A DNA stretch of 64,000 nucleotides, from sequence record OQ939939, one strand, 5' to 3'. The notes under the pieces are model-generated. The model worked only from the letters and a program-made list of their open reading frames with translations, was not told the DNA's origin and did no database searches. A program made the position numbers and the translations under genes. The DNA comes from Escherichia phage SUT_E1620. Below are positions 7,572 to 28,606 of the stretch, piece after piece. Positions within the stretch are counted from its first letter, which is position 1; the number at the start of each line of letters is the position of its first letter.

Positions 7572-7588
7572 GTAAATAAAAAATTCAG

Positions 7589-7617: not shown

Positions 7618-7649
7618 AAGTTCATAAATTAATGAGAGAGGAAATTCTA

Positions 7650-9159: not shown

Positions 9160-9259
9160 TTGATTTAACAACTGTTACGGCAATCCTAATCTTCGGTTTA
9201 GTGGTTGCCGTTTTCATAATCGTTGAGCAGGCCAAAGTAATACGGAGACTTAAAAATAG

Positions 9260-9460
9260 ATGATTAATTTTTATAACCCTAACTTGCAGAAAGCAACGTG
9301 GGATTACTTTATAATTCTACCAGCTTTTATGTTAAGTTGTGCAATCATTAACATTATGTATCAAGAAGCTGGTTGGACAGTCCAAGATTTCCACATTTCA
9401 CAAGTTCTTCCTTTCATGTATGAAGGCGTTATCGCAGCAATAAATGGAGTTCGTAAATGA
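9260..9460 (+). CDS. hypothetical small membrane protein
   Basis: 66 aa; hydrophobic. Confidence 0.3.
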   Translation: MINFYNPNLQKATWDYFIILPAFMLSCAIINIMYQEAGWTVQDFHISQVLPFMYEGVIAAINGVRK

Positions 9461-13082: not shown

Positions 13083-13099
13083 ACGTTAGCAAAATCTTC

Positions 13100-13128
13100 T
13101 TGACATTATTTGAGCTGCATGTTATAAT
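13100..13128 (+). promoter_or_regulatory. consensus sigma70 promoter reading into the repeat region
   Basis: perfect TTGACA, 17-bp spacer, perfect TATAAT. Confidence 0.5.
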
Positions 13129-13162
13129 AATCTCATAGATTAAAAACATCAACTTGTTTTTA

Positions 13163-13292
13163 CCTCTAGGCCGTAGATTTACATCATTCCTCGTAGGAAA
13201 ATACTTGATGACGGTTCTGCTTGCAGGTTCTCGTCAATTGTTCTTCCTCCCCGAGACTCAGGAGGATGTATCAAATCGCACGCGCCTAGAGG
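13163..13292 (+). ncRNA. candidate structured RNA (cloverleaf-like, about 130 nt)
   Basis: 9-bp closing helix CCTCTAGGC/GCCTAGAGG enclosing three local hairpins, just downstream of the consensus promoter; no convincing ORF. Confidence 0.2.
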
Positions 13293-13486
13293 GGCTAACT
13301 CTCATGAAATGGGGGTATATTAACTTTTATTTACCTTATAATATTTAAAGGCAATATTTGTGTTCAAGATGATACACCGGTTGCCGCTCATCTGCTAGGA
13401 CGGCACAACACTTTCTAGTAGACTCCTAAGTTTCTAGGAAAACTCACGCATTCTAGGGCAGTTTCTCTCCAACGTTACATATCCTA

Positions 13487-13526
13487 GGGCGGTTTCCTAT
13501 ACAGGGCGGTTATAGGGAGGGCGGTT
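13487..13526. repeat. three copies of GGGCGGTT spaced 15-17 bp
   Basis: direct reading; embedded in a CTAG-rich stretch. Confidence 0.5.
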
Positions 13527-13571
13527 ATTTCTAGAAGACATTTTTCCAAAACACATTTCTGGAAATTGCTA

Positions 13572-14172
13572 TCGGATTTGCACATTATGTTTCTAGAAAT
13601 TTATGGTCGGATTTGCACAAGTGCCTAAGTTTTTAGGAACACATAATCTCCTGAAAATAGCAGCATTATTTCGGGCCGAAGGCCCATGATTGCCTGAGTT
13701 TTTAGAGCCACAGGAATTTTCACTTGTCAAGCTATTTTGCCTCATTTTGCTAATAAAATTTCGCTTTATCTCCCTTAATCTCAATTCTAGCCAAAACATC
13801 CCGCATTATCCCCAAAAATGCAGCAAACCGGTGCTAAAGCACCATCACCGCTGCTCCTTCCGTAGTTCCTCCCAAAAACCTCGTCAGATTCGCACTTCTC
13901 CCCAAACTCACACAATCACACACCTTCTCATCGAAGTAACAAAAATCTTGTCGGTTTTGCACACCTTAACACTTGTCGGATTTGCACATACTCTAGTAAA
14001 TCCAGCTGGATTGCATCGCAGTTGCGGATTGCTGGAGTTTTTAGGAAAATTCATTGTCGGATTTGCACACTACCAAAAATTTTGGGGTCGGATTTGCACA
14101 CTACCAAAAATTGTCGGATTCGCACATACACGCCCGCACGTAACACCCGTGGAGCAATGTCGGATTTGCACA
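13572..14172. repeat. iteron array: 8 or more copies of 13-bp TCGGATTTGCACA
   Basis: copies at 13572, 13607, 13951 (TCGGTTTTGCACA), 13976, 14057, 14088, 14114 (TCGGATTCGCACA), 14160; two copies share extended context GTCGGATTTGCACACTACCAAAAATT. Confidence 0.8.
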
Positions 14173-14176
14173 AAAG

Positions 14177-14196
14177 CGCAGGGCAATTGCCCTGCG
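14177..14196. repeat. perfect 20-bp palindrome CGCAGGGCAATTGCCCTGCG
   Basis: self-complementary by direct reading; sits between the iteron array and the tandem repeats. Confidence 0.7.
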
Positions 14197-14201
14197 ACTT
14201 T

Positions 14202-14369
14202 GAATGATAATGTTTCTCATTTAAGAAGTGGAATGCGAATGATAATGTTTCTCATTTAAGAAGTGAAATGAGAACTATTCAAAAAGTGAAATGATTCTCA
14301 TTTAAGAAAGGAAATGATTATCAGTTAGACAGTGGAATGCGAATGATAATGATTCTCATTTAAGAATGG
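14202..14369. repeat. four tandem about 35-bp direct repeats (GAATGATAATGTTTCTCATTTAAGAAGTG family)
   Basis: units at about 14202, 14237, 14288 and 14341; related copies near 14700, 18110 and 23770. Confidence 0.7.
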
Positions 14370-14393
14370 AAGTGAGAAACACTGTTATTTAAG

Positions 14394-14502
14394 TTATCCA
14401 CAGACTTATTAACAGCACGATTTGATTTGACAGAATCCTAGCCATTTTGAGGCGTTATTAACAGACTTATCCACAGCTTATCCTACTGTATAAATATACA
14501 GT
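14394..14502. repeat. left arm of about 110-bp imperfect inverted repeat with two DnaA boxes
   Basis: TTATCCACA at 14394 and 14467; palindrome CTGTATAAATATACAG; reverse complement aligns to 17989-18096 at roughly 80 percent identity. Confidence 0.7.
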
Positions 14503-14759
14503 ATTCCTATGTAGTGAATAATTCTAATATAGGCCTAAAACGTCCTGAATCGCATTCTAACGCGTTTAATTTTGATGGAGATACTAAAACAAGGGCAAAA
14601 TTGGAGGAGGCTTAAAAATTAGTTAGCTTGCTAACGATCACACAAGGCGACACGTAACACCTTAATCATTAGCAGGCTAACCATCGCGGGCGCGGTTAAA
14701 TGAGAATCACTCTCATTTGAGAATTGGGGGCACTCCCTGGTAGTTGCGCCCCGTTATTA

Positions 14760-14954
14760 TTAGTCTGGTAGTCGATGCGTGATCTTTTCCTCCTCCCCGT
14801 AGGAATCCACCAAATGCTGATAATAACCATCGGCATCATAAATAACGCTATCATATTCGCCACGCTCGACCGCTTGCCGATTCTCCGGCGTATCGGGCAC
14901 GTAAAAAACATCAACCATTGTACTGATTTTGGTTACAACAATTTTATTGCTCAT
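14760..14954 (-). CDS. hypothetical acidic protein (cassette gene)
   Basis: ATG at 14954 with AGGGG SD (the track ORF extends to a TTG at 14984); last gene of the minus-strand operon. Confidence 0.35.
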   Translation of the reverse strand: MSNKIVVTKISTMVDVFYVPDTPENRQAVERGEYDSVIYDADGYYQHLVDSYGEEEKITHRLPD

Positions 14955-15054
14955 AATAACCCCTAGTAAATATATTTTTGCCAATAGTGGCGAACGTTAT
15001 CGCCACCAGCGGAATCATTTGCAGCCTCAACATTACCCGCGAAAATATATAATC

Positions 15055-15399
15055 TCATTGCGCCACCTTTCGAAACGCTGTTTCAATACTATCCGCAGTG
15101 GATTGAATATACGCGCCTTTCATTATCAGGCGCTCGGTGCATATCTTGCGAAAAATATTAATAAAATCATCTTCATTTTCTGCAATTAATGCTTCACCCA
15201 TAACCTGAACGTCACAAGATGCAAAGGTCAAAAATTGAAACGCTAGTTCACGGGCAACGACCGCATTGATTTTATAATGCGCCTTGCCCTCATAAATATT
15301 AATAACGCCCTTATAAGCTGGTGAAAGCTGATTCAAATAGTTTGCTAGTAATGCCGGACGGCAATTAGCAACAAAACGATTGCCTTCATAAATAACCAT
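15055..15399 (-). CDS. hypothetical protein (cassette gene)
   Basis: ATG at 15399 lies 1 nt after the upstream stop (the track ORF extends to a TTG at 15438). Confidence 0.4.
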   Translation of the reverse strand: MVIYEGNRFVANCRPALLANYLNQLSPAYKGVINIYEGKAHYKINAVVARELAFQFLTFASCDVQVMGEALIAENEDDFINIFRKICTERLIMKGAYIQSTADSIETAFRKVAQ

Positions 15400-15400
15400 T

Positions 15401-15613
15401 TTATAACACCCCACGAAACGCAGCGTAAAAGGTGGCAAAGTGTTTAACCGTTTCAGCGATCACGTTGCCGCGCTTGTCGAATTTTTTCTCAGTAACACGG
15501 AAGGCGTTTTTATTTCGCGCTACATATTCAATTTTACAATCTTCCCGCTCGAACGTGTTAACGTCCACCAGCTTAAAGCCTTTTGAACGTGCAAGGGAAA
15601 CGTTACGAATCAT
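15401..15613 (-). CDS. hypothetical basic protein (cassette gene)
   Basis: 70 aa; SD AAGGAG; tightly packed. Confidence 0.4.
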   Translation of the reverse strand: MIRNVSLARSKGFKLVDVNTFEREDCKIEYVARNKNAFRVTEKKFDKRGNVIAETVKHFATFYAAFRGVL

Positions 15614-15615
15614 TT

Positions 15616-15765
15616 TTATTCTCCTTTACTAGTCATGCAGCCCAGCAGATAAGAAAATACAGCGATACCCGCACCAATAATAACCGCGTGAACGTCGAAA
15701 GCTATTGCAAACAAAGATAAAATAGCGCCCAAGATACCCGCCAGAATAGCTCGAAAAATAACCAT
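15616..15765 (-). CDS. small hydrophobic membrane peptide (about 49 aa)
   Basis: hand-translated MVIFRAILAGILGAILSLFAIAFDVHAVIIGAGIAVFSYLLGCMTSKGE; SD AGGAGG; not in the ORF track because it is under 60 aa. Confidence 0.35.
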   Translation of the reverse strand: MVIFRAILAGILGAILSLFAIAFDVHAVIIGAGIAVFSYLLGCMTSKGE

Positions 15766-15814
15766 TTGTGATAGCCTCCTAGTTATCGGGGGATATAATA
15801 TCCCCCGTTACTAA

Positions 15815-16045
15815 TTACATTAAAACAATTTTTGCAGCTTGTTTTTTGGTGCAATGTTCCGCCTTCAGGGTATCCAGCAAAAAGCCAGCCGTTTGCTGAT
15901 CGATTTTATCGGCGTTATATAGTTCCTGAATGGTATTATAGGTTTTAGCAATACCGAACTCCTGCACCATTTCATAGATGACAGCACGATTAGACACCCA
16001 GCCTTGAGCGGTGAACAGATGACTAGCAGAAGAATAAGCAACCAT
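15815..16045 (-). CDS. hypothetical protein (cassette gene)
   Basis: ATG at 16045 preceded by GGAGG (the track ORF extends to a TTG at 16078). Confidence 0.4.
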   Translation of the reverse strand: MVAYSSASHLFTAQGWVSNRAVIYEMVQEFGIAKTYNTIQELYNADKIDQQTAGFLLDTLKAEHCTKKQAAKIVLM

Positions 16046-16108
16046 TTTAAGCCTCCAAATTTTTGGGAAAATTTTCAACCGTCCTTAAACGGTGTAAAGG
16101 CATTATAA

Positions 16109-16138
16109 CAAAAAAGGCCACCAATTATGGCGACCTTT
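16109..16138 (-). terminator. possible rho-independent terminator (minus strand)
   Basis: imperfect hairpin AAAGGTCGCC...GGTGGCCTTT followed by U-run in the minus-strand transcript, between the 164-aa gene and the downstream genes. Confidence 0.3.
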
Positions 16139-16151
16139 ACAAAACTTTACA

Positions 16152-16646
16152 TTAAACTACTTGTAATGTTTCAATATTGAAACATCGTTTCAATTCGTCA
16201 TGCAAAACAGCGTATTCATCCCATCGGGTACTATCAGGGATATAAACAAGCTGTTTTAGTCGGTTTGCGTATATTACCGCTTTGTTACCAACTATCTCGA
16301 CGCCGCCATATTTAATAATTAATTTCATGACGGAATTAATAGGATCGCCGCCGTTTACATATGTGCCGGATTTACTTAATTGATAATGATAAAGGCTTGC
16401 ATATACATTATCATTCTCATACCATTCGCCAGTATCCTCGTCTTCATAGCCATCGCTACCAAAACGAGAAGCATTATCAATAGCCATTTCATGAGCGAAA
16501 GCGTCCAGATCCGTACCAGCAGGAACAAAGTATTCCTCGGTATTCCCCTCGCCGCAATAGCCAGTATGGCAATCGACTAAAATGATCATATCATGTTTAG
16601 CCGTGCTCACTTCCCCTAGCGAGAAGCCGTATTTTTCCTCAGCCAT
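16152..16646 (-). CDS. highly acidic protein of unknown function
   Basis: 164 aa; about 28 Asp/Glu against 12 Lys/Arg, concentrated in the N-terminal 80 residues; SD AGGAGG. Confidence 0.5.
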   Translation of the reverse strand: MAEEKYGFSLGEVSTAKHDMIILVDCHTGYCGEGNTEEYFVPAGTDLDAFAHEMAIDNASRFGSDGYEDEDTGEWYENDNVYASLYHYQLSKSGTYVNGGDPINSVMKLIIKYGGVEIVGNKAVIYANRLKQLVYIPDSTRWDEYAVLHDELKRCFNIETLQVV

Positions 16647-16711
16647 TAGTTAGCCTCCTATTAATTAACAAGGGAATAGTAAAGCGGGGTAACAATCCCC
16701 GCTTAATATTA

Positions 16712-17722
16712 TTACTCGCTTTCGGTGTTAGTGGTAAAAGTAGAAATATCGATACCTTTTACCATTTCATCAATCATTTCAGCGATGTTAAAACTTTGCA
16801 CCATTTCCAGCATTGCCGCTTCCATAGCCGCCCCTGCTACCGCTTTCGCCTTTTGGTTATTTGGGGCGTACTGGTCAACCGCTACACTCAGCAGGTTAGC
16901 AATCACTACTCGACCAATAGGCGTATCGATATAACCTTTGATCATGAATGGTGCTTTTTTAGCCGCTACTTTCGTAATTTGAGTTAATGCAATTTTACCC
17001 GCTTCCAGTTTTGCAGCATTTACAACAGCGGATTTATTGGCGGCAACGATATTGGCGATCTTGGTCATGGTATTTTTTCCTTTGTTTTCAGTGATTTGAG
17101 TATTAACGCTTTGAGTGTTAGAATTTACAGCATGTTTTTCCGTGCTGTCAATGATCTGATTCTCATCTTTCCAGAAAATAAAACCCGCTTCATGTACTAG
17201 TTCATTATATATATACGGGTATAATTTCGATGGTAATAAAAAATTACCGTCGCCATCAAAAGCCATTACCGCCGTATATTGAGATCCATCACTATCAGGC
17301 CTATGCCATCCAGCAGATAAATACTTCCAGATAACATCTAAAAACCCCTCAAGGCTAGAAAGTCCGTTTATTAAATCAAGCCCAATAAGCTCAAAATTAT
17401 TTATATTAAATGATTGACGGCCTGAATTGCTATGATACGCAACAATATTATTACCCTGCGCAATAATAAAATCGGTATCCGGCCCCGCTCCCTTGCCTGT
17501 AAAGATATGGCAATCACGATTATATAAGATAATCGTTGCCCCCTGCTTATATAAGGGTAGAAAACTATCCATATCATAGGCATCATAATCATCAAAAAAG
17601 TTTTGGTGAATAGTTTCAGCCTTGTTAATAAAATGTTTAATGCTGGTTGTTCTGCTACCATCCAGCAGGTTACGCAGCGCACCTTTTAAGACGGTTGCGT
17701 TATCTGGTTTATATAGCCTCAT
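16712..17722 (-). CDS. two-domain protein of unknown function
   Basis: 336 aa; SD GGGAGG; N-terminal about 190-aa domain, polar linker, Ala/Val-rich amphipathic C-terminal domain. Confidence 0.5.
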   Translation of the reverse strand: MRLYKPDNATVLKGALRNLLDGSRTTSIKHFINKAETIHQNFFDDYDAYDMDSFLPLYKQGATIILYNRDCHIFTGKGAGPDTDFIIAQGNNIVAYHSNSGRQSFNINNFELIGLDLINGLSSLEGFLDVIWKYLSAGWHRPDSDGSQYTAVMAFDGDGNFLLPSKLYPYIYNELVHEAGFIFWKDENQIIDSTEKHAVNSNTQSVNTQITENKGKNTMTKIANIVAANKSAVVNAAKLEAGKIALTQITKVAAKKAPFMIKGYIDTPIGRVVIANLLSVAVDQYAPNNQKAKAVAGAAMEAAMLEMVQSFNIAEMIDEMVKGIDISTFTTNTESE

Positions 17723-17988
17723 TTGTTGGCCTCCCTCGTTAATCGGTGAGTGAATGATAAAGGCAATTTTCTAGCATAGGCAAATATTATTTTACCTTTT
17801 TATTTTCCTTGCCTAGCGCCTAGTTTTATGCTAACCGCGCAGCGGTACAGTAAAGAGCAAAACACGGTGAAGCCACCAGGGCGACGGGTGAAGGCTTTAC
17901 TTTAATATTACCCCACCGCATTTAGCTCGTTAGAAAGCGTTTTAGGCCGCTTAAAATTGATTGCAGTTGTTAACACTACCCATTTACC

Positions 17989-18096
17989 CTGTATATTTAT
18001 ACAGTAGGATAACATGTGGATAAGTCTGTGGATAAGTCCTTATATCGCCGCCTATCGTGTCAAATCATTTTGTGCTGTTAATAACATTGTGGATAA
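17989..18096. repeat. right arm of inverted repeat with three DnaA boxes
   Basis: TGTGGATAA at 18015, 18027 and 18088; palindrome CTGTATATTTATACAG; inverted copy of 14394-14502. Confidence 0.7.
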
Positions 18097-18936
18097 CTTA
18101 AATGATAGTGGTTCTCACTTAGGACGATAGTTTCTTATAGTTATTATTTCTATCGGTTACGATTTCTTATAATTATTATTTCTCATTAATTTATAAGTAT
18201 ATTATATATCATGAAATAGTTAGTTGGCTAATGAGATTTTCCGTGATTAATAGTCTGCTAATAGTTCCGGCTGTTACAATCCACCAGCATGATTATCATC
18301 CTAGCAACTATTAGTCTGCTATCTTTCCGATGCATACTAACAAATAAAAGTCAATTAATTTATTTCATAAAATAAGTAGTTATCCACTGGAAAATAAAAG
18401 TCAAGTGGATAACTAGGAAAATTTCATTTTTGCTTTTGGGGATAAGTTATCAACAAGGCTAGAATGCGCCTAAAACGCCCTAGAACGCGATGAAAGTTTT
18501 AGCCATGCCATTGCATTGCCTACCCTCGTTTATCGCTACCACGAGCTTTTTAGTTTTTGTCAAGTAGGGCAAGGCAAATATAAATGAAAAAATTACTTGC
18601 CAACCTGCTGGGTTTTATGGTATTCGCGCGCCCGTTTCCTTTAATTTTAGTGCGCCGCGCCCAGGTCGCCGCACGGTGTCCGGTGGCATTTTGTCTTTAC
18701 GTTTCTTTACAAAAATAAGGTTGCGCCATTTTTACTATTTGCTATTATTTATCTCGTAGGGAGGCAATGACGAACTACACGGCGGGAAGTTTACCGCCAC
18801 GCTCTTTAAAAATTGGGTATATCTTAAAGCCTATCGGCGGTAAACTTATTCATTATAAGGAATCGACGATATGAAACAGACGCTTTTGATCACTGGCAAG
18901 CCTAGCAAGGCACTAGATAGCAAAACAAAAAACTTG

Positions 18937-18964
18937 TTGACAGTAGCGCAAAGATCGGTAAAAT
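18937..18964 (+). promoter_or_regulatory. consensus sigma70 promoter
   Basis: TTGACA, 16-bp spacer, TAAAAT. Confidence 0.5.
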
Positions 18965-19070
18965 ACCGATTCACGCAGTACAAGAAAGGTCGCCAGCAAG
19001 GTTTAGAAATGATCTGGAGAAATATTATGATTGACCTGAAAGAAAATCATAAAAAACTGCAAAAAATTGT

Positions 19071-19099
19071 TTGACAACCTAGCCGATAGGCTTTAAGAT
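19071..19099 (+). promoter_or_regulatory. consensus sigma70 promoter
   Basis: TTGACA, 17-bp spacer, TAAGAT; about 200-nt leader before the ATG at 19301. Confidence 0.5.
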
Positions 19100-19226
19100 G
19101 TACCCAGTTCGATAAGAGCGATAACTTGATAAAATTTGACGGTCGGTGCTTACCATAATGCGCCCCGCCCCCTAACGGGATATAGCGGCCTACGTGGAGT
19201 TCTTTAAATTGATTAAACTGGCGAGC

Positions 19227-19277
19227 GGATTGTTACTTATTACCTGCTACTTTCTAGCAGGTAATGCGGAACAATCC
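19227..19277 (+). promoter_or_regulatory. long two-tier hairpin in the 5-prime leader
   Basis: GGATTGTT/AACAATCC outer stem enclosing TACCTGCTA-CTTTC-TAGCAGGTA inner stem, just upstream of the SD. Confidence 0.4.
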
Positions 19278-19300
19278 ATCAAATAACTGGAGTTTATATT

Positions 19301-19552
19301 ATGCAAAACGTTATTACCGCGCCTAAAATTGGTCAATCTGTTTTTATTCCTTTCGTTACTAAAACGGACGAATTAACCGGAAAAGCCGAACGTATTAAAG
19401 GCGCGGCGCTTATGCCTTTCGATACAATCGACGCGGTATACGCTGAAAATGAACGTAGTAACAACGGCAAGCCTGTTTTTAACGTTCGCGTTAAATCCGG
19501 CGACGTTGTAAAGATCATTCAGAAGGATGATAAATGGCAAGCCATAGCATAA
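19301..19552 (+). CDS. hypothetical protein
   Basis: 83 aa; SD CTGGAG. Confidence 0.4.
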   Translation: MQNVITAPKIGQSVFIPFVTKTDELTGKAERIKGAALMPFDTIDAVYAENERSNNGKPVFNVRVKSGDVVKIIQKDDKWQAIA

Positions 19553-19652
19553 ATTAGTGTTACTTTTATATTCCCCTGAAATATGGGGAATATATGGATT
19601 AACATTAGTTAATCATAATCCCTTAATTAATAATTGAATGGAGTATTAAATT

Positions 19653-20069
19653 ATGTCTAACGTTAAAACCGAAAAAACCGCAAAATTCTCTTGGAACGAA
19701 GAAAACACCGAAAAGGCTGTTTCTATGTATTCTGAAATGGTCGCTAAAAGCGGGATTGAGTTTGCGAATAGTGACGGCTTAAAAGAAATTGCCGCCGCCG
19801 TTGGCGCTGCTAGTCCGGTGTCTGTACGTTCTAAACTGACAAGCGCAAAAGCGTACCAGAAAAGCGATAAACCGCGTAAAGTTGGCGGCGGGTCTAGTGT
19901 CCGTAAAGCTCACTATGTGCGCGTCATTGCTAAACATGCCATTGATAGCGGCATTGTAAAAGACGCTGACGATCTGGCAAGTCTGGAAAGTGCAAAACTG
20001 GAAACGCTGGACGCCGTAGCTCAATTGTTAGGCGTAGCGGAGGAAGTAAAACAGGCCGCAGGTGAATAA
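19653..20069 (+). CDS. hypothetical protein
   Basis: 138 aa; SD TGGAG. Confidence 0.4.
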   Translation: MSNVKTEKTAKFSWNEENTEKAVSMYSEMVAKSGIEFANSDGLKEIAAAVGAASPVSVRSKLTSAKAYQKSDKPRKVGGGSSVRKAHYVRVIAKHAIDSGIVKDADDLASLESAKLETLDAVAQLLGVAEEVKQAAGE

Positions 20070-20127
20070 ATTTTAATTAGCGGGGAATATTCCCCGCTAT
20101 AATTTCCCTTTGACCGGAGTTATTAAA

Positions 20128-20355
20128 ATGATTTTCTTCCCTAGTGAAGCGTTTATTTTAGGTTTATTTATAGTTGCCGCTATGTTTATATTTAATTACG
20201 GCAAATATATAATCTCTATTATCGGCATTAATTCAGCTTATGCCGCTGATATGTTTAAACGTCAAGCTAATAAACAAAAATATCTGGCGATTATATTTTT
20301 AACGCTGGCTATTAGTTGCGGGTTTAGTTCTAGTCTTATGCCAATTCTAGAATAA
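20128..20355 (+). CDS. small membrane protein
   Basis: ATG at 20128 with GGAG SD (the track ORF starts at a TTG at 20110); two hydrophobic helices. Confidence 0.35.
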   Translation: MIFFPSEAFILGLFIVAAMFIFNYGKYIISIIGINSAYAADMFKRQANKQKYLAIIFLTLAISCGFSSSLMPILE

Positions 20356-20463
20356 TATTGCAAATTATAACGCCTTTTAAATTGTCCTCACTTCAGGCAA
20401 GGCGTTATATTTGGCAATATTGCCAGTATTAATATTTATCCCTTTATAGGAGTTGATTTAGTT

Positions 20464-22134
20464 ATGAATATTTCCGCAGAAAAACAAGCTCAAATTTTGA
20501 AAATGGCCGCTGATTTTAATTTCTATGGTAAGCGTTTACGCGCTACTAAATTGGAAGTTTGCGACGATATTTCAAAAGCTGTTTATGATACGCCGAAACA
20601 TTCGACCGCAATTTGTGACTGGCTGGAAGCAAATAAGCCAGCGAAACCGAAAGCGGCAAAAGCTGAAAAGGCGATTAAAAATGATGATCGCCCCGAAGCG
20701 GCGGGAATTGTTTCTAGTACCGTTGAACAATGGGAAGTTAAATCCGGTCGCCGTTTTATTCTAACGTCGATTCAAAATAATACTTTCCCGCATAAAAACT
20801 TTTTAGCAAGTCTGGAAAAATTCGCTGAATATTGCGGCGCTGAATTGCTGATTAGTAAATTCATTTATAATAAAAATGGATTCCAGAACGGGGAAGGGGC
20901 AAACGGTATTAAATACGATCCCGCATTTGATAAATATGTTTGTGATAAAAACGTATTTTTAAATAACCGCCGCTTTGCTTTCATGGCTGAAATTAATGTT
21001 TTACCAACGGCAGATTATCCGCTTTCAGGATTCGCAGAAACCGCCACGGCTTTAAATATCGAAGGTCTGGCAATTGGTCACGCAAAAATTACCGCTGAAA
21101 GTGTTCCCGCGCTTAAAGGTGAAGTAGTGCGCCGTATGTATTCAACCGGAACGGCAACGCTCAAAAACTACATTCAGCAGAAAGCCGGACAAAAGGCCGA
21201 GGCGCTGCATAATTTCGGTGCGCTTATTGTCGAGTTCGACGAAGACGGTGAGTTTTTTGTTCGCCAGCTTGAAACGATGGATGAAAGCGGGGTATTTTAT
21301 GATCTGAATGTTTGTGCTACTCCCGCCGGATGCTATGAAACAACGGGACACGTTTTAGGTTTACAATATGGTGACATCCACGCTGAAAAATTAGATGAAG
21401 AATGCGCCGCTGCATCTTGGGGGCATGGCGACACCTACGGGCTTGTGGATATTCTTAAACCAAAATATCAATTCGTACACGACGTGCATGATTTTACATC
21501 ACGCAACCATCACAACCGCGCATCCGGTGTATTCCTAGCAAAACAATACGCCGCCGGACGTGATAAAGTTATTGATGATCTTATCGATACGGGGCGCGTG
21601 CTGGAATCAATGGAACGTGATTTCTCGCAAACAATCATTGTTGAATCTAATCACGATTTGGCGCTATCCCGTTGGCTTGATGATCGTAATGCTAACATTA
21701 AAGACGATCCAGCAAACGCGGAACTATATCACCGCCTAAATGCCGCGATTTATGGAGCTATTGCAGAAAAAGACGATACTTTCAACGTGCTAGATTATGC
21801 GCTGCGCAAGGTTGCAGGTTGTGAGTTTAACGCCATTTTTCTAACTACTGACCAATCTTTCAAGATTGCAGGCATTGAATGCGGCGTACACGGTCACAAC
21901 GGCATTAACGGCAGCCGTGGCAATCCTAAACAGTTTAAGAAATTGGGCAAGCTAAACACGGGACACACCCATACCGCTAGCATTTACGGTGGCGTTTATA
22001 CCGCTGGCGTAGCTGGTAGTCTGGATATGGGTTACAACGTTGGCGCGTCAAGCTGGACGCAAACGCATTTAATTACCTATGCAAACGGTCAGCGCACTTT
22101 GATTGACTTTAAAAACGGTAAATTTTTCGCGTAA
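20464..22134 (+). CDS. A1: A1-like pre-early metallophosphatase
   Basis: 556 aa, the size I recall for T5 A1; phosphoesterase motifs YGDIHAE, HGDTYG, RNHHN, GVHGHNG, GHTHT; SD TAGGAG. Confidence 0.65.
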   Translation: MNISAEKQAQILKMAADFNFYGKRLRATKLEVCDDISKAVYDTPKHSTAICDWLEANKPAKPKAAKAEKAIKNDDRPEAAGIVSSTVEQWEVKSGRRFILTSIQNNTFPHKNFLASLEKFAEYCGAELLISKFIYNKNGFQNGEGANGIKYDPAFDKYVCDKNVFLNNRRFAFMAEINVLPTADYPLSGFAETATALNIEGLAIGHAKITAESVPALKGEVVRRMYSTGTATLKNYIQQKAGQKAEALHNFGALIVEFDEDGEFFVRQLETMDESGVFYDLNVCATPAGCYETTGHVLGLQYGDIHAEKLDEECAAASWGHGDTYGLVDILKPKYQFVHDVHDFTSRNHHNRASGVFLAKQYAAGRDKVIDDLIDTGRVLESMERDFSQTIIVESNHDLALSRWLDDRNANIKDDPANAELYHRLNAAIYGAIAEKDDTFNVLDYALRKVAGCEFNAIFLTTDQSFKIAGIECGVHGHNGINGSRGNPKQFKKLGKLNTGHTHTASIYGGVYTAGVAGSLDMGYNVGASSWTQTHLITYANGQRTLIDFKNGKFFA

Positions 22135-22187
22135 TTAAATTATCCCCTAGCGGCTTGAAATATAGCCGCTATTACAGGAGTCAAAAA

Positions 22188-22445
22188 ATGAAAGTTACAT
22201 TACCCAAAACATTGGACGAAAAAGCATTCATCTCACCGGATGAAATGGAATCCGATAAAGTTTACAGCTTTGGGCCTATCCTAGCCGCCAAAACTAATAC
22301 GGATGGCATTATTTCCATCGATTATCGTGATAATGATGTTGTTCCTTTTGATGATGATGGCGCTTTTTATGAGTGGCTAAGCGATAATAATTTACCCGTA
22401 AACGGTGAATTAACGCCGTACCAGATGCAGATTATTATCAAATAA
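22188..22445 (+). CDS. hypothetical acidic protein
   Basis: ATG at 22188 with CAGGAG SD (the track ORF starts at a TTG at 22155). Confidence 0.35.
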   Translation: MKVTLPKTLDEKAFISPDEMESDKVYSFGPILAAKTNTDGIISIDYRDNDVVPFDDDGAFYEWLSDNNLPVNGELTPYQMQIIIK

Positions 22446-22484
22446 ATTAAATCCCTATATTAAACTAATTGGAGTTTTATAAGT

Positions 22485-22877
22485 ATGAAAAAGCAAAATA
22501 TTCCATTCGATCGCGCTCAGTCTTCCATTGTTCTGGTTTATTCTAATGGTGAACGTTACCACGTCGAGGCGGGGCACGTTATTGATGAATTATTAGATTT
22601 CAATGACGCTTTACAGGTTACTACCTTTGCCTATACGCAAGGCAAACTAACCAGCCATATTAAAGCAAAAGGCGTTTATGTTGACACGATGAAACAAGAA
22701 ACAATCATTATTGACGCGGTAAAATCTGGTCTAGCCTTTGCAGTTGTCGCGCCTTGCCCCGCTTGCCTTGATGATCAGCTAGCGAGCGCAAAGGTATACA
22801 CCTGCGCGGGGATTCGTTCTAGCGTATCCGGTGAGGATGTTAGTTTTATCGCTGATGCGTTGGCTTATGGTCTTTAA
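22485..22877 (+). CDS. hypothetical protein (A2-like by position and size only)
   Basis: 130 aa; SD TTGGAG; lies between the A1-like and dmp-like genes. Confidence 0.3.
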   Translation: MKKQNIPFDRAQSSIVLVYSNGERYHVEAGHVIDELLDFNDALQVTTFAYTQGKLTSHIKAKGVYVDTMKQETIIIDAVKSGLAFAVVAPCPACLDDQLASAKVYTCAGIRSSVSGEDVSFIADALAYGL

Positions 22878-22956
22878 TAGTTGATTTATTATTACCCGCT
22901 TATAAATAGCGGGTAATGCTGAATTAATCTAATCCCTTAAATGGAGAACGTAACAA

Positions 22957-23691
22957 ATGAATAAAGCTATTATGAATATTTCCCGCAGCTTCCCGCATAT
23001 TTCCCGCGTCATGATTTGGGATTTAGACGGCACTATCGTTAATTCTTTCCATCGTGTAGCGCCTTGCTTTGATAGTGAGGGCAATTTAGATTTAAATAAG
23101 TATAAAAATGAAGCGTGTAAACATCATTTAATAATGCAAGATACTTTATTGCCATTGGTTGAATATATGCGCCAGTGCATGAATGACGCAAATACTTTAA
23201 ACATTATTTGCACCGCTCGACTGATGAGTAAGTCGGACTATTATTTCTTGCGCAAACAAGGCTTGCGCGGTCGTGGTAATAGTAATATCCGCGTATTTTC
23301 CCGCGACACACTGCATAAATATTTTAAAGCTGATAAGGTTAGCGAAATATACCACAGCAAAGACGCAGTATATAAATCTTATTATTTTGAATTATTTAAA
23401 CAGTTATATCCGAACGCTGATTTTACAATGATTGATGATCATAAAGGCGTACTATCAGCGGCGGCATCATACGGATTTAAAACGCTGGACGCCCAAGCCG
23501 TTAATGATATTCTATCAATCGGCGTGGCATTAATAGGTGAAACCTTTATTGATGAATCTCTCGACGATGATAATGATTATCAATTCCTAGCCGATCGTTT
23601 GAAATTATGTTGGGAAGGTATGACCGAAGAAGAACGCGCAGAATATAGTACCACACCGCAACAATTCATTGATAAATTAAAAGTTGCCTAA
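22957..23691 (+). CDS. dmp: HAD-family 5-prime-deoxyribonucleotidase (dmp-like)
   Basis: 244 aa; HAD motif I WDLDGTIVNS; SD ATGGAG; size matches my recollection of T5 dmp. Confidence 0.6.
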   Translation: MNKAIMNISRSFPHISRVMIWDLDGTIVNSFHRVAPCFDSEGNLDLNKYKNEACKHHLIMQDTLLPLVEYMRQCMNDANTLNIICTARLMSKSDYYFLRKQGLRGRGNSNIRVFSRDTLHKYFKADKVSEIYHSKDAVYKSYYFELFKQLYPNADFTMIDDHKGVLSAAASYGFKTLDAQAVNDILSIGVALIGETFIDESLDDDNDYQFLADRLKLCWEGMTEEERAEYSTTPQQFIDKLKVA

Positions 23692-23854
23692 CAATTAAAA
23701 ATAAAATAGTCACACTGTGTAATGATAACATGGTGTGACTATTAGCTTGCTAAGTAAGGGGGCGGTAATGAGACTCATTCTCATCTAGGGAACCTCTGGG
23801 CACACCTTCATGTGTAATCTTATGAGATTTCGAGAATTGGTAATTAGCGCTAAC

Positions 23855-24100
23855 TTAGGAGGAACACCGGTCTACTGGCTTGTCTCCTGATTCTGACATA
23901 CGAAATCTCCTCCGCGATGCCCGAGATCCATCCGACCACTCTCGCTCAAACTCCTCCCGTTTCTCCGCAAACTTCCGCTCCCTTTCCGAAAGCTCCCGCG
24001 ATACTCCCGCAATATATTCACGATGCTTATTAATCGCCCCGAGTGTTCCGAAGATTCCCACAAGCACCCCGATAATAAAGATAGCTACAAAGCTAAACAT
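23855..24100 (-). CDS. small membrane protein with charged C-terminal tail
   Basis: 81 aa; N-terminal TM; TAATG-coupled to the upstream small ORF. Confidence 0.4.
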   Translation of the reverse strand: MFSFVAIFIIGVLVGIFGTLGAINKHREYIAGVSRELSERERKFAEKREEFEREWSDGSRASRRRFRMSESGDKPVDRCSS

Positions 24101-24204
24101 TACTTGTCTCCCCGCAGCTTACGTTCAATACGAGCTAAGTGGTTATCTAAGATGCACTGCCCGATAATTACCACAACTAGTAAAGCAATAATTACTACTT
24201 CCAT
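24100..24204 (-). CDS. small membrane peptide (about 34 aa)
   Basis: hand-translated MEVVIIALLVVVIIGQCILDNHLARIERKLRGDK; TAATG overlaps at both ends. Confidence 0.3.
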   Translation of the reverse strand: MEVVIIALLVVVIIGQCILDNHLARIERKLRGDK

Positions 24205-24338
24205 TATAACCACCCCGCCATAGCCGCTAACCAAAAGAGTACAAAGATAAAGAATAACACAGTCCCGAATCCGAAACTATTTATCCAACTTTCGTACACT
24301 TCCCCGCGTCTGTTCTTTCTTCTGTTGTCGTCTGACAT
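24204..24338 (-). CDS. small tail-anchored membrane protein
   Basis: ATG at 24338 with CAGGAG SD (the track ORF extends to a GTG at 24389); C-terminal TM helix. Confidence 0.3.
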   Translation of the reverse strand: MSDDNRRKNRRGEVYESWINSFGFGTVLFFIFVLFWLAAMAGWL

Positions 24339-24591
24339 CTCTTTGCTTCTCCTGTAGTCCTGGTATTTGGAATATCCTAGCAATTGCACGAACCATTACG
24401 ACTGTCCCGATAAGATCCATTACTTCATCGAAGCCGGACTCTTCTAGCAAAAAGGATGTTCCCATCACATCTTCCATTGTATCTTCTATGACGTCTTGAA
24501 TGATTTCGTTAATTGCATCATGTATTGCTTTAGTCCTGGGATCTATTTCAAAGTTAACAGGTTCCTGAAAGGACTTTTCTTCATCTTGCAT
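24277..24591 (-). CDS. hypothetical acidic protein
   Basis: 104 aa; weak SD; overlaps the downstream small ORF. Confidence 0.3.
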   Translation of the reverse strand: MQDEEKSFQEPVNFEIDPRTKAIHDAINEIIQDVIEDTMEDVMGTSFLLEESGFDEVMDLIGTVVMVRAIARIFQIPGLQEKQRDVRRQQKKEQTRGSVRKLDK

Positions 24592-24665
24592 TGTGTTTGC
24601 TACCTGTACCTCATCCCAGAAATAAAAATTTTTGTTTACTTCGAGATCTTTTTACTTTATACTAA

Positions 24666-24932
24666 TTACAAGTGACCAGATTGTTCTAGTTTAAATTTGC
24701 AATCGCCATATTTGAGATCAAACTGTGACAAATCCCACCACCCAAACTTAGTGCGTAACTGAGTTTTAGGGAATCGGTAGCCCACAGTACGGGCTTCTCG
24801 AATATCTAAAGCATAGTGTTCTTCACCAACATGACCATAAGACTTCACATATGCCTTACAAAATGGCTCGGGAGCTGGTACACAACCCGTCAACACTACT
24901 GCTGCAACTACGATGGCTAGTAACTTTTTCAT
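24666..24932 (-). CDS. llp: small lipoprotein, candidate receptor-blocking (Llp-like) protein
   Basis: 88 aa; signal peptide with lipobox LTGC; SD AGAGGA; divergent from the adjacent large plus-strand gene, as for T5 llp/oad. Confidence 0.5.
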   Translation of the reverse strand: MKKLLAIVVAAVVLTGCVPAPEPFCKAYVKSYGHVGEEHYALDIREARTVGYRFPKTQLRTKFGWWDLSQFDLKYGDCKFKLEQSGHL

Positions 24933-25015
24933 AATCGTTCCTCTGTTTAATTTATAAATATATTATAGCAAAATAGAGGGATCTAAGCAAATACATTTTT
25001 AAAGAAGGAGATTGT

Positions 25016-26797
25016 ATGAGTTTTTTCGCAGGAAAATTTAGTGATGGTAAAACTGTATTATCGCTAAACGCTGCTAATGGTGGTGATATAAATCAGCACT
25101 ACTCTCCAAATACTAATAGTATCTTCCACTCAGATATGCCCTTCGTCCTAGTTGATGGGACTTATGAAGCGGCTCTAGGTGATGCAGGCAATGGGTATTT
25201 TGTTACTCAGATGCCTTGGGATATTATAAACATTAAATCCAATGATCCTGGTAGAGTTATACTAACTGCTATTGAGATAAACGGTACTCATCGTGGATTT
25301 CTGAATGGTACACAATCTCAGGTTGGCCAGTTCTTATCATTCTTTGAAGATCAACCACGTGCTGGTGCTGAACTGGCTATAACATCTGCTTTTGCAATCG
25401 GTGATAGTTTAGCTCACGGTACTTATATATATAATGGTGGTCTTGGTCATGAGGAATCTATTGCTAGGCAAGGAACTGGTGGTACTTTACTACAATCTTC
25501 CGGTTTCCAGATCTTTAGACCTGGTGGTGTTTCCGCAGGTGAAGCTATTTCCAGAGCCTGGGGATTAATGGGCTTTCCTACTGGTGTTTCTACTGTTCCT
25601 ATAGATGGTGGTAACGCCGATTATTGGGAACCTAACTGGCAAGCGCCTGTTGGTTCTGCTGGTAGAGGCCATGATTGGTTTTATGTTTGTAGTTCTAATA
25701 TTCGTGGCTTCGCAGGTAAAAAAGGCGTACTACCAGATAACGTAAACGTTCTTTACCAATCTCCTGCATATCCAGAAAAAATATATGTTTGTAGAGGTTC
25801 TACTTCTAATATGGCTGCTCAGTCCGCTAGAAAGGTATATGTACAGGACTGGTATAATGTTACGCCAACTAAGGTTATTTGGTATGTGCTAAATCTGCGC
25901 TATTCTAATGGTAGTATGGGAGTTTCTGGTAATCCATTTACCGGTTCAGATATCCTAATATCTCCATCTAACTTTACTATTAAAGGTGTTAGTTTACCAA
26001 ATACAGGATATAAATTCATTAACCAGAATGCCTTTGGAAACTTAGGCTATCGCCCTGATATGGAGTATGTTGGTAATAACGCTGCGTATACCGGAGTTTT
26101 TGGTGATAATACTGCACGATGTGAATTTATCGGCTCTAGTAATGGTGGGTTGTGGTCGCCCGTTAACTATGGGGGTGCAGCTTCCCAAATTAGCCTATAT
26201 AAATTTGGTGTAGGTAAACAATGGTATGTAGATACTAATACCAACTCCATTGGTAATGAACATGGACCTGTGTGGAGTCCTAGTACTGTACCCCTCAGGT
26301 TATTCCCAGGCAACGTTGCAAGTACTTATGTAGGGGACGATATAACTCCATCCTACCCTGGTGCTGGTGACTTCTACACACCTTTGGCCACTGTTTGGTT
26401 AGGATTACCTAATGCTCACTCTACCGTTATATTAACTACTGAAGTTATTATGGGTAATCTTAATACTGCTGGAATGCCTGTGCGTACTTATGGTGGTAGT
26501 GCTTGGCAGGTACAAGGTAGACGTCAACAAAGTTATACAGCTGGTGATGGTGTATTCCATCAGATTCTTACTCTGCCACCTGGCTATCTAGTACCTTATC
26601 ACAGTACAACTTCCTATAGTTATACACAAACTTGGGCTAGTAGGCCAAATGAGTTTGCTTTCCGTAGGAACGGATATATTTATACTATTAAAAACCTTGG
26701 TAATGGCAACGTTGAGTTGGGTGTTATCATTCACGCTGCAGAAGCGGCAGCTGTTTTCTTGCCAAGACTACGTGTAACAGTTCAACGCCTAACCTAA
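25016..26797 (+). CDS. putative receptor-binding tail protein (pb5-like by position)
   Basis: 593 aa; SD AAGGAG; sits between the lipoprotein and the terminase genes; Gly/Thr-rich. Confidence 0.45.
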
Positions 26798-26807
26798 AGG
26801 AGGATAT

Positions 26808-27290
26808 ATGGCAAATGATGTATTAGTTCCCGATCTCATGTCTCCCGAAGGCATGGATGTTATTGAAGCCTATTTACAATGCGGTAGTGATGTTCCTGCC
26901 GCTGCTCGTAGTCTTGGGATGTCCGAGATTGCATTCCGTGATATAATGAATCGTGGGGAAGTTAAAAACTATCTTAACGATATCTTTATGGAAAGCGGCT
27001 TCCGTAATCGTGACCGTTTGTTTGGGGTTCTTGATGAAGTTATCAAGCGTAAGCTAGAAGAACTTGAAGAAACTGGCATGGGTTCTGACCAGGATATCAT
27101 GGATATTCTCTGGAAGGCGCACAAGATGAAAATGGAAGAAATGAAAATGATGGTAGAACTGGAGAAAGTGAAGGCAGCAGCCCGTACTCCGGCTAACCAG
27201 ACTAACATTCAGAATAATATTATTGCTGGAAGTGGTGACGAAAACTATATGAATCTTATTACCGCTCTAGCAGGAGGAGGTAAGAGATAA
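26808..27290 (+). CDS. terminase small subunit
   Basis: 160 aa; N-terminal HTH-like segment; immediately upstream of the large subunit. Confidence 0.5.
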
Positions 27291-28606
27291 TGAAAGTCTC
27301 TAGAGACTATATTAACACCACAGATGTTATTGACTTTGGTATTGACAAACGATTCTTTCGTCTACCAGTCTCTAGCATCCTAGCACAAGAGGGGATTACA
27401 CCTAATGCCCCTCAGATTGCAATCATTAATGCGCTGGAAGACCCAAGACACCGTTTCGTAACTGCATGTGTATCACGTCGTGTAGGTAAGTCGTTCATCG
27501 CATATACTCTTGGGTTTCTGAAGCTTCTGGAGCCTAATGTAAAGGTGCTAGTAGTAGCACCTAACTATTCACTGGCTAACATCGGTTGGTCACAGATTCG
27601 TGGTCTTATTAAGAAGTATGGATTACAGACTGAACGTGAGAACGCCAAAGATAAAGAGATTGAACTAGCGAATGGTTCTCTCTTTAAGCTGGCTTCTGCA
27701 GCGCAGGCTGACTCCGCGGTTGGTCGTTCGTATGACTTCATCATCTTTGACGAAGCAGCGATTTCCGATGTTGGTGGTGCAGCTTTCGATATTCAGTTAC
27801 GTCCTACCCTAGATAAGCCAAACTCTAAAGCTCTGTTTATTTCCACACCTCGTGGTGGTAACTGGTTCAAAGAGTTCTATGAGAAAGGATTTAATGAGAC
27901 GCTGCCTAACTGGGTATCTATTCATGGTACATATCGTGATAACCCACGTGCTGATCTGAACGATATCGAAGAAGCGCGTCGTACAGTTAGTAAAAACTAC
28001 TTTCGTCAGGAATATGAGGCTGACTTCTCTGTATTCGAAGGTCAGATCTTTGATACCTTTAATGCTATAGACCATGTTAAAGACCTTAAAGGTATGCGTC
28101 ACTTCTTTAAAGATGATGAAGCATTCGAAACGTTGCTTGGTATTGACGTTGGTTATCGTGATCCTACAGCAGTTCTTACTATTAAGTACCACTATGATAC
28201 AGATACCTACTATGTATTAGAAGAGTACCAGCAGGCGGAGAAAACCACAGCTCAGCATGCGGCTTACATTCAGCACTGTATAGATCGTTATAAAGTTGAT
28301 CGTGTTTTTGTTGACTCTGCCGCAGCTCAGTTCCGTCAGGACTTAGCTTATGAACATGAAATTGCATCGGCTCCAGCTAAAAAATCTGTCCTAGATGGAT
28401 TAGCATGTTTACAAGCACTATTCCAACAAGGCAAGATTATTGTGGATGCTTCATGTTCCTCATTAATTCACGCATTGCAGAATTACAAGTGGGATTTCCA
28501 AGAAGGTGAAGAAAAATTATCACGTGAAAAACCACGTCATGATGCTAACTCTCACCTCTGTGATGCTCTGCGCTATGGAATTTACTCTATTTCCCGTGGT
28601 AAATAA
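27290..28606 (+). CDS. terL: terminase large subunit
   Basis: 438 aa; Walker A-like RRVGKS; Walker B DFIIFDEAA; C-terminal nuclease-like domain. Confidence 0.85.
   Translation: MKVSRDYINTTDVIDFGIDKRFFRLPVSSILAQEGITPNAPQIAIINALEDPRHRFVTACVSRRVGKSFIAYTLGFLKLLEPNVKVLVVAPNYSLANIGWSQIRGLIKKYGLQTERENAKDKEIELANGSLFKLASAAQADSAVGRSYDFIIFDEAAISDVGGAAFDIQLRPTLDKPNSKALFISTPRGGNWFKEFYEKGFNETLPNWVSIHGTYRDNPRADLNDIEEARRTVSKNYFRQEYEADFSVFEGQIFDTFNAIDHVKDLKGMRHFFKDDEAFETLLGIDVGYRDPTAVLTIKYHYDTDTYYVLEEYQQAEKTTAQHAAYIQHCIDRYKVDRVFVDSAAAQFRQDLAYEHEIASAPAKKSVLDGLACLQALFQQGKIIVDASCSSLIHALQNYKWDFQEGEEKLSREKPRHDANSHLCDALRYGIYSISRGK

Follow-up and report, generated by a model that had tools for sequence, protein, structure and literature searches.

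Gene content and untranslated repeats of the block

The window analysed here, a 64,000-nt stretch of DNA, derives from a T5-like phage (Demerecviridae) and harbors, to the right of its early genes and to the left of the genes for pb5, terminase and tail proteins, a compact block of divergently transcribed genes and untranslated repeats (Table 1). Homology searches with this block identified 493 phage records, nearly all of them T5-like, with Baret as the best match (91.6%). The window is reverse-complemented with respect to the T5 map, and the global alignment of the block to positions 1-10600 of T5 (AY587007) yielded 83.5% identity. Liftover from AY587007 placed each annotated T5 gene, repeat, palindrome, promoter and nick in colinear order.

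Table 1. Features of the block and its surroundings in window coordinates
Feature	Position	Strand	Basis or remark
Unique DNA left of repeat	13083..13704		aligned to T5 10140-10528, past the T5 repeat end
Perfect sigma-70 consensus promoter	13100-13128	+	only one in the window
Untranslated Repeat Region 3, candidate injection-stop region	13467..14632		liftover of T5 9194-10409
DRD array, 8 x GTCGGATTTGCACA	13571..14172	+	correspond to T5 DRD1-8
Predicted long terminal repeat (10,098 bp)	13705..23802		AY587007 liftover exact at both ends
Homologue of the T5 major nick site (7.9%)	14176..14183		liftover; GCGC beside palindrome J (14178-14192)
Four DRC repeats (AATGATAATGnTTCTCATTTAAGA)	14196..14365		repeat search and liftover
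Inverted-repeat arm 1 (T5 IRC'-spacer-IRD')	14370..14516		inverted repeat I1, 147 nt, 78% complementary
Leftward pre-early block, T5 genes 011-017	14760..17722	-	PHROG and Pfam matches per ORF
ORF	14760-14984	-	leftward block
016	15055-15438	-	leftward block
015, Ung-dependent nickase family	15401-15613	-	leftward block
014	15616-15765	-	leftward block
013	15815-16078	-	leftward block
ORF without T5 counterpart	16152-16646	-	leftward block
011 and 012 fused	16712-17722	-	leftward block; DUF7566
Inverted-repeat arm 2 (T5 IRD-spacer-IRC, Repeat Region 2)	17974..18120		I1 and liftover
Repeat Region 1 and divergent pre-early promoter region	18458..19120		inverted repeat I2 and liftover
IRB	18458-18483		within Repeat Region 1
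IRA'/IRA	18800-18838 and 19082-19120		within Repeat Region 1
Small ORF	18871-19074		phrog_4718
Promoter-like sites	18937-18964 and 19071-19099	+	11/12 and 10/12 matches; T5P1/T5P2 lift over
Rightward pre-early operon	19301..23691	+	PHROG matches and liftover
T5 007	19301-19552	+	rightward operon
A2	19653-20069	+	phrog_1725
Membrane protein	20110-20355	+	rightward operon
A1	20464-22134	+	rightward operon; colinear with T5
003	22155-22445	+	rightward operon
002	22485-22877	+	rightward operon
dmp (244 aa)	22957-23691	+	phrog_415; colinear with T5 dmp
Terminator hairpin	23710-23740		3' of dmp operon
Unique DNA right of repeat	23803..24650	-	T5 ORF148-151 homologues; unbroken alignment over T5 junction
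Membrane protein	23855-24100	-	T5 ORF148-151 homologue group, PHROG
Small ORFs	24204-24389 and 24277-24591	-	T5 ORF148-151 homologue group, PHROG
Right-hand context	24666..28606		late genes
llp-type lipoprotein	24666-24932	-	right-hand context
Receptor-binding protein pb5	25016-26797	+	right-hand context
ORF	26808-27290		right-hand context
Terminase large subunit	27290-28606	+	orthologous to T5 terminase

An earlier note on this DNA had recognized an A1-like metallophosphatase, a dmp-like nucleotidase and a repeat and DnaA-box locus within the block. All of these are present, together with A2 and in T5 order, and the last resolves into two untranslated repeat loci with eight DnaA or DnaA-like boxes. 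The order dmp, A1, A2 at the outer end is the feature by which Davison recognizes true T5-like phages, and here all three genes lie on the plus strand and are transcribed toward 23802.

The A1 product carries the signature of calcineurin-like metallophosphoesterases (D-x-H, D-x-x-D, N-H-D/E, H, G-H-x-H), with G303-D304-x-H306, D340/D343, N396-H397, H476-G-H478 and G500-H501-x-H503 invariant in 32 homologues reaching down to 43% identity, and D398, following N396-H397, nearly invariant in the same set. Its fold resembles solved calcineurin-like metallophosphoesterases. The Pfam Metallophos threshold was not reached, and no Pfam, NCBIfam or PDB sequence match was found, for the C-terminal half up to E 10. 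We conclude that A1 has a metallophosphoesterase fold; published work predicts it to be a metallophosphatase and treats it as a family hallmark. The dmp product contains DLDGT, a DxDxT motif, at residues 22-26, with a weak HAD_2 match (E 0.081) that falls short of the cut-off, and the gene is clearly orthologous to T5 dmp, with 88.9% identity at the nucleotide level. The divergent region between the two transcription units contains strong sigma-70-like promoters (17.8-19.1 kb), and the small ORF located over the promoters in Repeat Region 1 is, judging from this position, probably the hdi equivalent.

The untranslated region at the inner end contains IRD'-spacer-IRC', DRC and DRD, with all T5 elements in order. 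Matches to GTCGGATTTGCACA number 12 in the window against 0.31 expected, and eight of them form the DRD array, six copies lying inside the predicted repeat and two outside (13571, 13606). Repeat Region 3 extends past the inner end of the repeat into unique DNA (13467-13704); in T5, according to Davison, the same overrun measures 270 bp. The point at which T5 DNA is sheared in a blender, at about position 9618, lifts over to about 14215, the inner limit of first-step-transfer DNA.

The DnaA or DnaA-like boxes are organized as four pairs with 3-bp gaps, two pairs per inverted-repeat arm. In arm 1 the pairs span 14394-14414 (TTATCCACA gac TTATTAACA) and 14455-14475 (TTATTAACA gac TTATCCACA), and those of arm 2, on the minus strand, span 18015-18035 and 18076-18096, with box starts (14394/14406, 14455/14467, 18015/18027 and 18076/18088) in agreement with the published layout. 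Exact TTATCCACA sequences occur six times in the 64 kb, where 0.75 are expected for the whole window, and five of the six fall in the arms. This eight-box layout is reported to be conserved, making the window one further example of it, and its role in halting DNA transfer has only been proposed. At the level of sequence, both the nick site and the candidate stop region are conserved here.

The T5 repeat, reported to be 10,139 bp long with a first-step transfer of 7.9%, shares with the window the order dmp, 002, 003, A1, 005/006, A2, 007 and the opposing block 011-017. In both, three repeat regions are untranslated, DnaA boxes are paired within the IRC/IRD inverted repeat, DRC and DRD form arrays, and palindrome J accompanies the nick site; the two end sequences are shared as well. 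The T5 flanks likewise match on either side (early genes on one, ORF148-151, llp and pb5 on the other), and the terminase gene region aligns with that of T5 at 87.6%. The window differs in that it lacks the HNH (hegG) insertion that T5 has between Repeat Regions 1 and 2, carries 548 additional bp that include a 164-aa ORF, presents ORF011 and ORF012 as a fusion, and has eight DnaA-type boxes where T5 has seven. Furthermore, T5 has two copies of the repeat, whereas the window sequence has one.

Predicted ends of the terminal repeat

To delineate the repeat, we mapped the annotated ends and junctions of T5 and its relatives onto the window. The outer end, T5 position 1, falls at 23802, and those of MM-1, SIA3lw, Stitch, Seafire and AKM_ECS fall at 23801. 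The inner end, T5 position 10139 (equivalent to the T5 genome end, 121752), falls at 13705; the repeat ends annotated in MM-1 and SIA3lw share an alignment column with the right genome end of T5, and the inner end of Stitch maps to about 13700, some 5 nt away. Both T5 loci support these positions. The left locus aligns without interruption through T5 10139 (T5 9238-10528 to window 14595-13363), with the inner junction T5 10139|10140 at 13705|13704, while the right locus aligns without interruption through T5 111614, with the outer junction T5 111613|111614 at 23803|23802, and stops at 13705. In alignments with T5, MM-1 and SIA3lw, both end sequences are conserved down to the single nucleotide.

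Taken as sequence evidence, these results make it very likely that the block corresponds to the pre-early, first-step-transfer region of a T5-like phage, whose long terminal repeat is represented here by one merged copy at 13705-23802. The match to the T5 pre-early terminal repeat of about 10 kb that the earlier note had proposed is thus borne out by colinear liftover, continuous junctions and an orthologous terminase. The exact ends are predicted from sequence conservation, which places the likely genome ends of the phage at 13705 and 23802. A long terminal repeat in a T5-like phage is known biology and, as such, an ordinary finding.

Annotated repeat ends are not uniform in the T5-like group, and three records differ at one or both ends: those of saus47N map to 23707 and 13913, those of Kenya-K44 to 23782 and 14673, and the inner end of Seafire, assigned by PhageTerm, to 14177. 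A shorter repeat, with its inner end at the GCGC nick near 14177, as in Seafire (9,592 bp), or at a position like those of Kenya-K44 and saus47N, would fit these annotations, and the 13.4-14.0 kb DNA belongs to the type of Epseptimavirus (Sds2), the genus of Seafire. We nevertheless consider it improbable, since 14177 corresponds by homology to the T5 7.9% nick, a place where a pile-up of read ends is expected without a genome end, and since Stitch, also an Epseptimavirus, is deposited with both copies and ends at about 13700, while T5, MM-1 and SIA3lw agree on 13705. This suggests that at least one deposited repeat annotation, that of Seafire, stops at a nick site and not at the genome end.

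The block could also be an ordinary internal single-copy segment of a genome lacking a long terminal repeat, through headful packaging for instance, or having its repeat elsewhere. A repeat search found no second copy within 13000-25000, leaving one copy in the window, and sequence alone does not demonstrate duplication. Such a reading is very unlikely, however, given that every examined relative deposited with resolved ends carries the block at both of them, that the phage has an orthologue of the T5 terminase, and that the sequences of both predicted ends are so strictly conserved. By analogy with these relatives, the block would be duplicated at both virion ends.

Least tenable, and almost certainly incorrect, is a repeat spanning 13100-24650 with genome ends near 13.1 and 24.6 kb, as first drawn in the earlier note: its edges resemble natural module boundaries, with a perfect promoter starting at 13100 and an ORF block stopping near 24.6 kb, but 13363-13704 corresponds to T5 10140-10528 and 23803-24388 to T5 ORF148-151, both single-copy in T5, and the outer end lies at 23801/23802 in six relatives and the inner end at 13700-13705 in four. 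That interval is about 1.45 kb too wide, its edges being displaced by 0.6 and 0.85 kb, and the surplus comprises 605 bp (13100-13704) and 848 bp (23803-24650) of unique-region DNA, in which a conserved promoter and three or four small genes are located.

Merged layout and proposed course of infection

The proposal that a collapsed repeat separates the early and late modules is supported by the disposition of the flanking genes, with early genes on the left and llp, pb5 and terminase on the right; they flank the block because the repeat is present as one merged copy. Intracellular T5 circles are reported to consist of the genome minus one repeat, and the succession of early genes, repeat and late genes is thus the layout of the replicative form. 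The same layout could alternatively originate from an assembler merging two identical ends, and assemblers have been reported to mishandle T5-type repeats.

Extrapolating from T5 and its relatives, the virion DNA would be linear, with the 10.1-kb block at both ends, and infection would begin at the 23802 end, the "left" end of T5. About 9.6 kb would enter before transfer stops near 14.2-14.5 kb, within the untranslated repeats, by a mechanism that is hypothetical even in T5. According to the literature, the pre-early genes are then expressed by the host RNA polymerase, A1 drives host DNA degradation, dmp dephosphorylates dNMPs, and A1 and the DNA-binding protein A2 restart transfer of the remaining DNA. 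The doubled gene dosage that the earlier note had attached to the repeat is of doubtful functional weight, because only the left copy is reported to enter the cell at the first step and pre-early gene activity is shut off in an A1-dependent manner. As a merged representation, the sequence would imply a true virion genome about 10.1 kb longer than the source assembly.

The short terminal repeats of T7-like phages are likewise direct, located at both ends of a linear genome and present once per replicative unit, and the entering end carries the first-expressed genes, as in the T5 type. T7 repeats, however, are ~160 bp long and non-coding, whereas the T5-type repeat predicted here extends over 10 kb, includes a candidate injection-stop region and carries 18 ORFs of at least 49 aa matching phage protein families.

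Representation in relatives and mosaicism of the repeat

The gene encoding A1 was found at 524 places in 447 records, pointing to about 77 records with two copies. Among the 60 matches listed, two-copy records are mostly 115-123 kb long, and those whose ends were examined have the repeat at each of them, while one-copy complete genomes are mostly 104-115 kb. Most deposited T5-like genomes present a unique-repeat-unique layout. Baret (OR896834, 108 kb) and Sds2 (MW357609, 115 kb) show the same arrangement as the window, with early genes, one repeat and then llp, pb5 and terminase; these records are database representations of the same merging and do not differ in kind. Among Epseptimavirus and Tequintavirus relatives for which both copies are deposited, the repeats of Stitch (9,982 bp), MM-1 (10,407 bp) and SIA3lw (9,916 bp) have the same content and end within 0-5 nt of the window positions. 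Differences in length with respect to relatives correspond to indels, which affect the 011-017 block as well as the repeat regions. The BF23 repeat, known from the literature only, is 9,743 bp long by PhageTerm.

The interior of the repeat is mosaic relative to its flanks. Over the repeat, the nearest match is Tequintavirus, with 89.9% to Baret; the flanks most resemble Epseptimavirus sepoy, the right one matching Sds2 at 96.4%, and the unique DNA at 23803-24650 is 98% identical to many Epseptimavirus records. The history of this phage thus differs from that of any single reference. Sds2-like backbone, which encodes the terminase, occupies 13.4-14.0 kb on the inner side and resumes from about 23.6 kb on the outer side. 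One tentative and rather unlikely explanation is that the interior (about 14.1-23.6 kb) constitutes a Baret-like, Tequintavirus-type pre-early cassette exchanged between genera. If this were the case, and not chance mosaicism, the determinants of terminase cutting would lie near each repeat end and travel with the backbone, leaving the cargo free to swap.

Predicted location of the repeat ends

Both ends of the repeat were located by homology to T5 (AY587007) and to annotated relatives. At the inner end, the alignment of the left T5 locus crosses T5 position 10139 without a break (T5 9238-10528 to window 14595-13363), and that of the right locus halts at the T5 genome end, which corresponds to window position 13705. 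When this region was aligned with T5, MM-1 and SIA3lw, the right end of T5 and the annotated repeat ends of the other two fell in one column, at 13705, between TTTTTA and GAGCCACAGG; the right end of the T5-like phage Stitch maps to ~13700. At the outer junction, the alignment continues without interruption from T5 ORF151 into dmp, passing over the beginning of the right repeat. T5 position 1 falls at 23802, between CTCTGGGCA and CACCTTCATG, with the outer ends of MM-1, SIA3lw, Stitch, Seafire and AKM_ECS one position away, at 23801. From this homology, the repeat is predicted to span 13705-23802 (10,098 bp). The ends proposed in the earlier note, near 13.1 and 24.6 kb, do not hold, since those of the relatives map to 13705 and 23801/23802. 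The 605 bp by which its block exceeds the repeat on the left are the homolog of unique T5 DNA, with 13363-13704 aligning to T5 10140-10528, and the 848 bp in excess on the right carry homologs of T5 ORF148-151 and are 98% identical to many Epseptimavirus records. A cut-site motif common to both ends is not claimed, because the only sequence shared at the same offset by T5, MM-1, SIA3lw and the window, CCA, is too weak.

A repeat shorter than 13705-23802 appears very improbable. It is suggested by the record of the T5-like phage Seafire (MK050846.2), where a "terminal repeat predicted with PhageTerm" (1..9592) has its end at window position 14177; this position, however, is the exact homolog of the 7.9% strand nick of T5 and differs from the ends of T5, MM-1, SIA3lw and Stitch, so that the nick was probably mistaken for a genome end. 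The annotated ends of saus47N (23707 and 13913) and Kenya-K44 (23782 and 14673), and the start of the faergetype record (~14084), disagree with the consensus ends and were regarded as approximate or arbitrary.

A single copy between unique flanks

A record that is correctly linear has the repeat at its ends. In the window, unique DNA lies on either side of it and each junction is one that occurs naturally in T5, which is the layout expected if two identical ends had been merged. The collapsed terminal repeat described in the earlier note is supported in kind, its twofold presence in the virion being a prediction from relatives; both of its coordinates are wrong, and its placement between early and late modules agrees with the gene content of the flanks. 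The left flank reaches 98.5% identity to Epseptimavirus records, and the right flank (25016-48000) is 97.5% identical to Sds2 and Sepoy. Baret and Sds2, two T5-like relatives, present the same merged layout. A search with the A1 gene returned 524 places in 447 records, and therefore some 77 records carry it twice; among the 60 rows listed, two-copy records are mostly 115-123 kb long (DT57C, at 108 kb, and SE7, at 114 kb, being exceptions) and one-copy complete genomes mostly 104-115 kb. Assemblers are known to mishandle such repeats, and T5 circles inside the cell consist of the genome minus one repeat (Davison), so the window also has the layout of the replicative form. Alignment to T5 across the terminase gene region gives 87.6% identity, an argument that packaging follows the T5 mode.

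When 13100-24650 was compared by megablast with 50,697 phage records, 493 gave matches, almost all from T5-like Salmonella and Escherichia phages, with Escherichia phage Baret as the top match (91.6% identity). Annotations beneath the matches include A1/DNA transfer protein, dNMP monophosphatase and A2; some records also label an "LTR" or a "right terminal repeat region". A long terminal repeat is already well known from T5-like phages.

In the region 24666-26797, the pb5 receptor-binding protein (593 aa) lacks a match to T5 pb5 at the nucleotide level, with neighboring genes matching at 87.6%, and the adjoining lipoprotein matches the Cor/Llp superinfection-exclusion family. The 23-kb late region with pb5 shares 97.4% identity with Salmonella phage Sepoy, and the Sepoy record includes an annotated FhuA receptor-binding tail protein.

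Gene and repeat layout compared with T5

Global alignment of window 13290-23802 with the reverse complement of T5 1-10600 yielded 83.5% identity. Using the detailed annotation of both T5 ends, liftover recovered all annotated features in order: the terminator, dmp, palindrome A, ORF002, ORF003, A1, ORF005/006, palindrome B, A2 and the 9.2-kDa ORF; promoters P1 and P2 with the inverted repeats IRA/IRA', then IRB, IRC, IRD and IRB'; promoter P4 and ORF011-017; and palindrome D, IRD', IRC', the direct repeats DRC1-4, palindrome J, the 7.9% nick site and DRD1-8. In AY587007, a single one of 10,139 positions distinguishes the two copies of the T5 repeat, which carry an annotation as identical there.

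Features of the repeat and its flanks
Feature	Window position	Description
Left-flank early genes	1-13704	phosphatase, dNMP kinase, holin, endolysin
GTCGGATTTGCACA (DRD motif)	13571-14172	8 copies
147-nt inverted repeat	14370-14516; 17974-18120	arms
164-aa ORF	16152-16646	phrog_6741; carried by a 548-bp insertion relative to T5 (16155-16707)
336-aa ORF	16712-17722 (-)	single ORF equal to T5 ORF011 + ORF012; Pfam DUF7566, E 6.8e-115
Second stretch listed with the T5-relative insertion	18146-18350
Promoter-like sites	18937-18964; 19071-19099	directed towards A2, A1 and dmp
A2	19653-20069	phrog_1725
A1	20464-22134	556 aa; phrog_1745, E 2.8e-244
dmp	22957-23691	phrog_415
Right-flank late genes	25016-48000	receptor-binding protein, terminase, portal, capsid, tail
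Sds2-like sites	to ~12.1 kb; 13.4-14.0 kb; from 23.6 kb
Baret-like sites	12.3-13.4 kb; 14.1-23.6 kb

The match to the T5 pre-early region, the dmp-like gene and the locus of repeats and DnaA boxes, all put forward in the earlier note, are borne out by this colinearity, by dmp itself, and by the inverted repeat, its paired boxes and the GTCGGATTTGCACA array. The A1-like metallophosphatase is supported by motifs and fold. A1 is present, at 94% identity to named A1 proteins, and its five metallophosphatase signature motifs are invariant in an alignment of 32 homologs with identities down to 43%; sequence profiles, with zero matches in Pfam, NCBIfam and PDB sequences, do not confirm the label. T5 gene 011 has been reported to be toxic.

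The arms of the inverted repeat hold eight DnaA or DnaA-like boxes, which form four pairs whose members are separated by 3 bp. Of the six exact TTATCCACA sites that the window contains, five lie within these arms (0.75 expected window-wide). The loose consensus TTWTNCACA shows no enrichment at window level (11 found vs 7.5 expected); the DnaA signal comes from the way exact boxes cluster and pair. A layout of this kind is described in the literature, with three untranslated repeat regions, the third extending 270 bp past the repeat end, and eight DnaA-type boxes that sit in IRC/IRD and IRD'/IRC' as pairs spaced by 3 bp. Matches to GTCGGATTTGCACA number 12 in the window (0.31 expected). Those beyond the repeat region comprise a back-to-back pair, GTCGGATTTGCACC and GTAGGATTTGCACA, at 55974-56002 (+), within the minus-strand ORF 55330-57243, and single copies at 11548 and 11785, both in early genes; these suggest a DNA-binding factor with sites outside the repeat. 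An Rfam scan of 12800-25100 returned no credible RNA family.

The window itself shows which genes are present and in what order, the promoter-like sites, the fold of A1, the arrangement of the boxes and the homology of the ends. In T5, the left end, whose homolog here is 23802, enters first; ~7.9% of the genome is transferred before a stop near the shear point at T5 9618 (~14215 here), which has been proposed to be caused by DnaA binding at the boxes, and A1 and A2 are required for transfer to resume. Degradation of host DNA requires A1, and dmp is dispensable. By analogy, SUT_E1620 DNA would enter from the 23802 end, halt near 14.2-14.5 kb and resume its transfer through A1 and A2.

Mosaic interior and a consensus promoter

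Identity of the window to Baret is 89.9% over the repeat and that to Sds2 75.9%; over the right flank the order is reversed, with 96.4% for Sds2 and 68.2% for Baret. With these two references, informative sites change type at ~12.2, 13.4, 14.05 and 23.6 kb. Judged by these switches, both predicted repeat ends would lie in Sds2-type (backbone) DNA and the interior would be of Baret type, that of another genus, a split that is a lead and not a result because it draws on two references only. Coincidence of the mosaic breakpoints with the repeat ends was rejected: on the right, the breakpoint (~23.6 kb) falls within the repeat, 200 bp from its end, and on the left the pattern is patchy.

The sole perfect sigma-70 consensus in the 64 kb, TTGACA-N17-TATAAT with TG in the spacer, is found at 13100-13128 (+), ~600 bp beyond the inner end of the repeat and directed towards it. 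A perfect match is absent from the homologous T5 spot. The hexamers and TG are kept in four relatives (SIA3lw, Baret, Sds2 and EH3) despite spacer differences, and SIA3lw annotates a 47-aa ORF starting nearby, at 13208.
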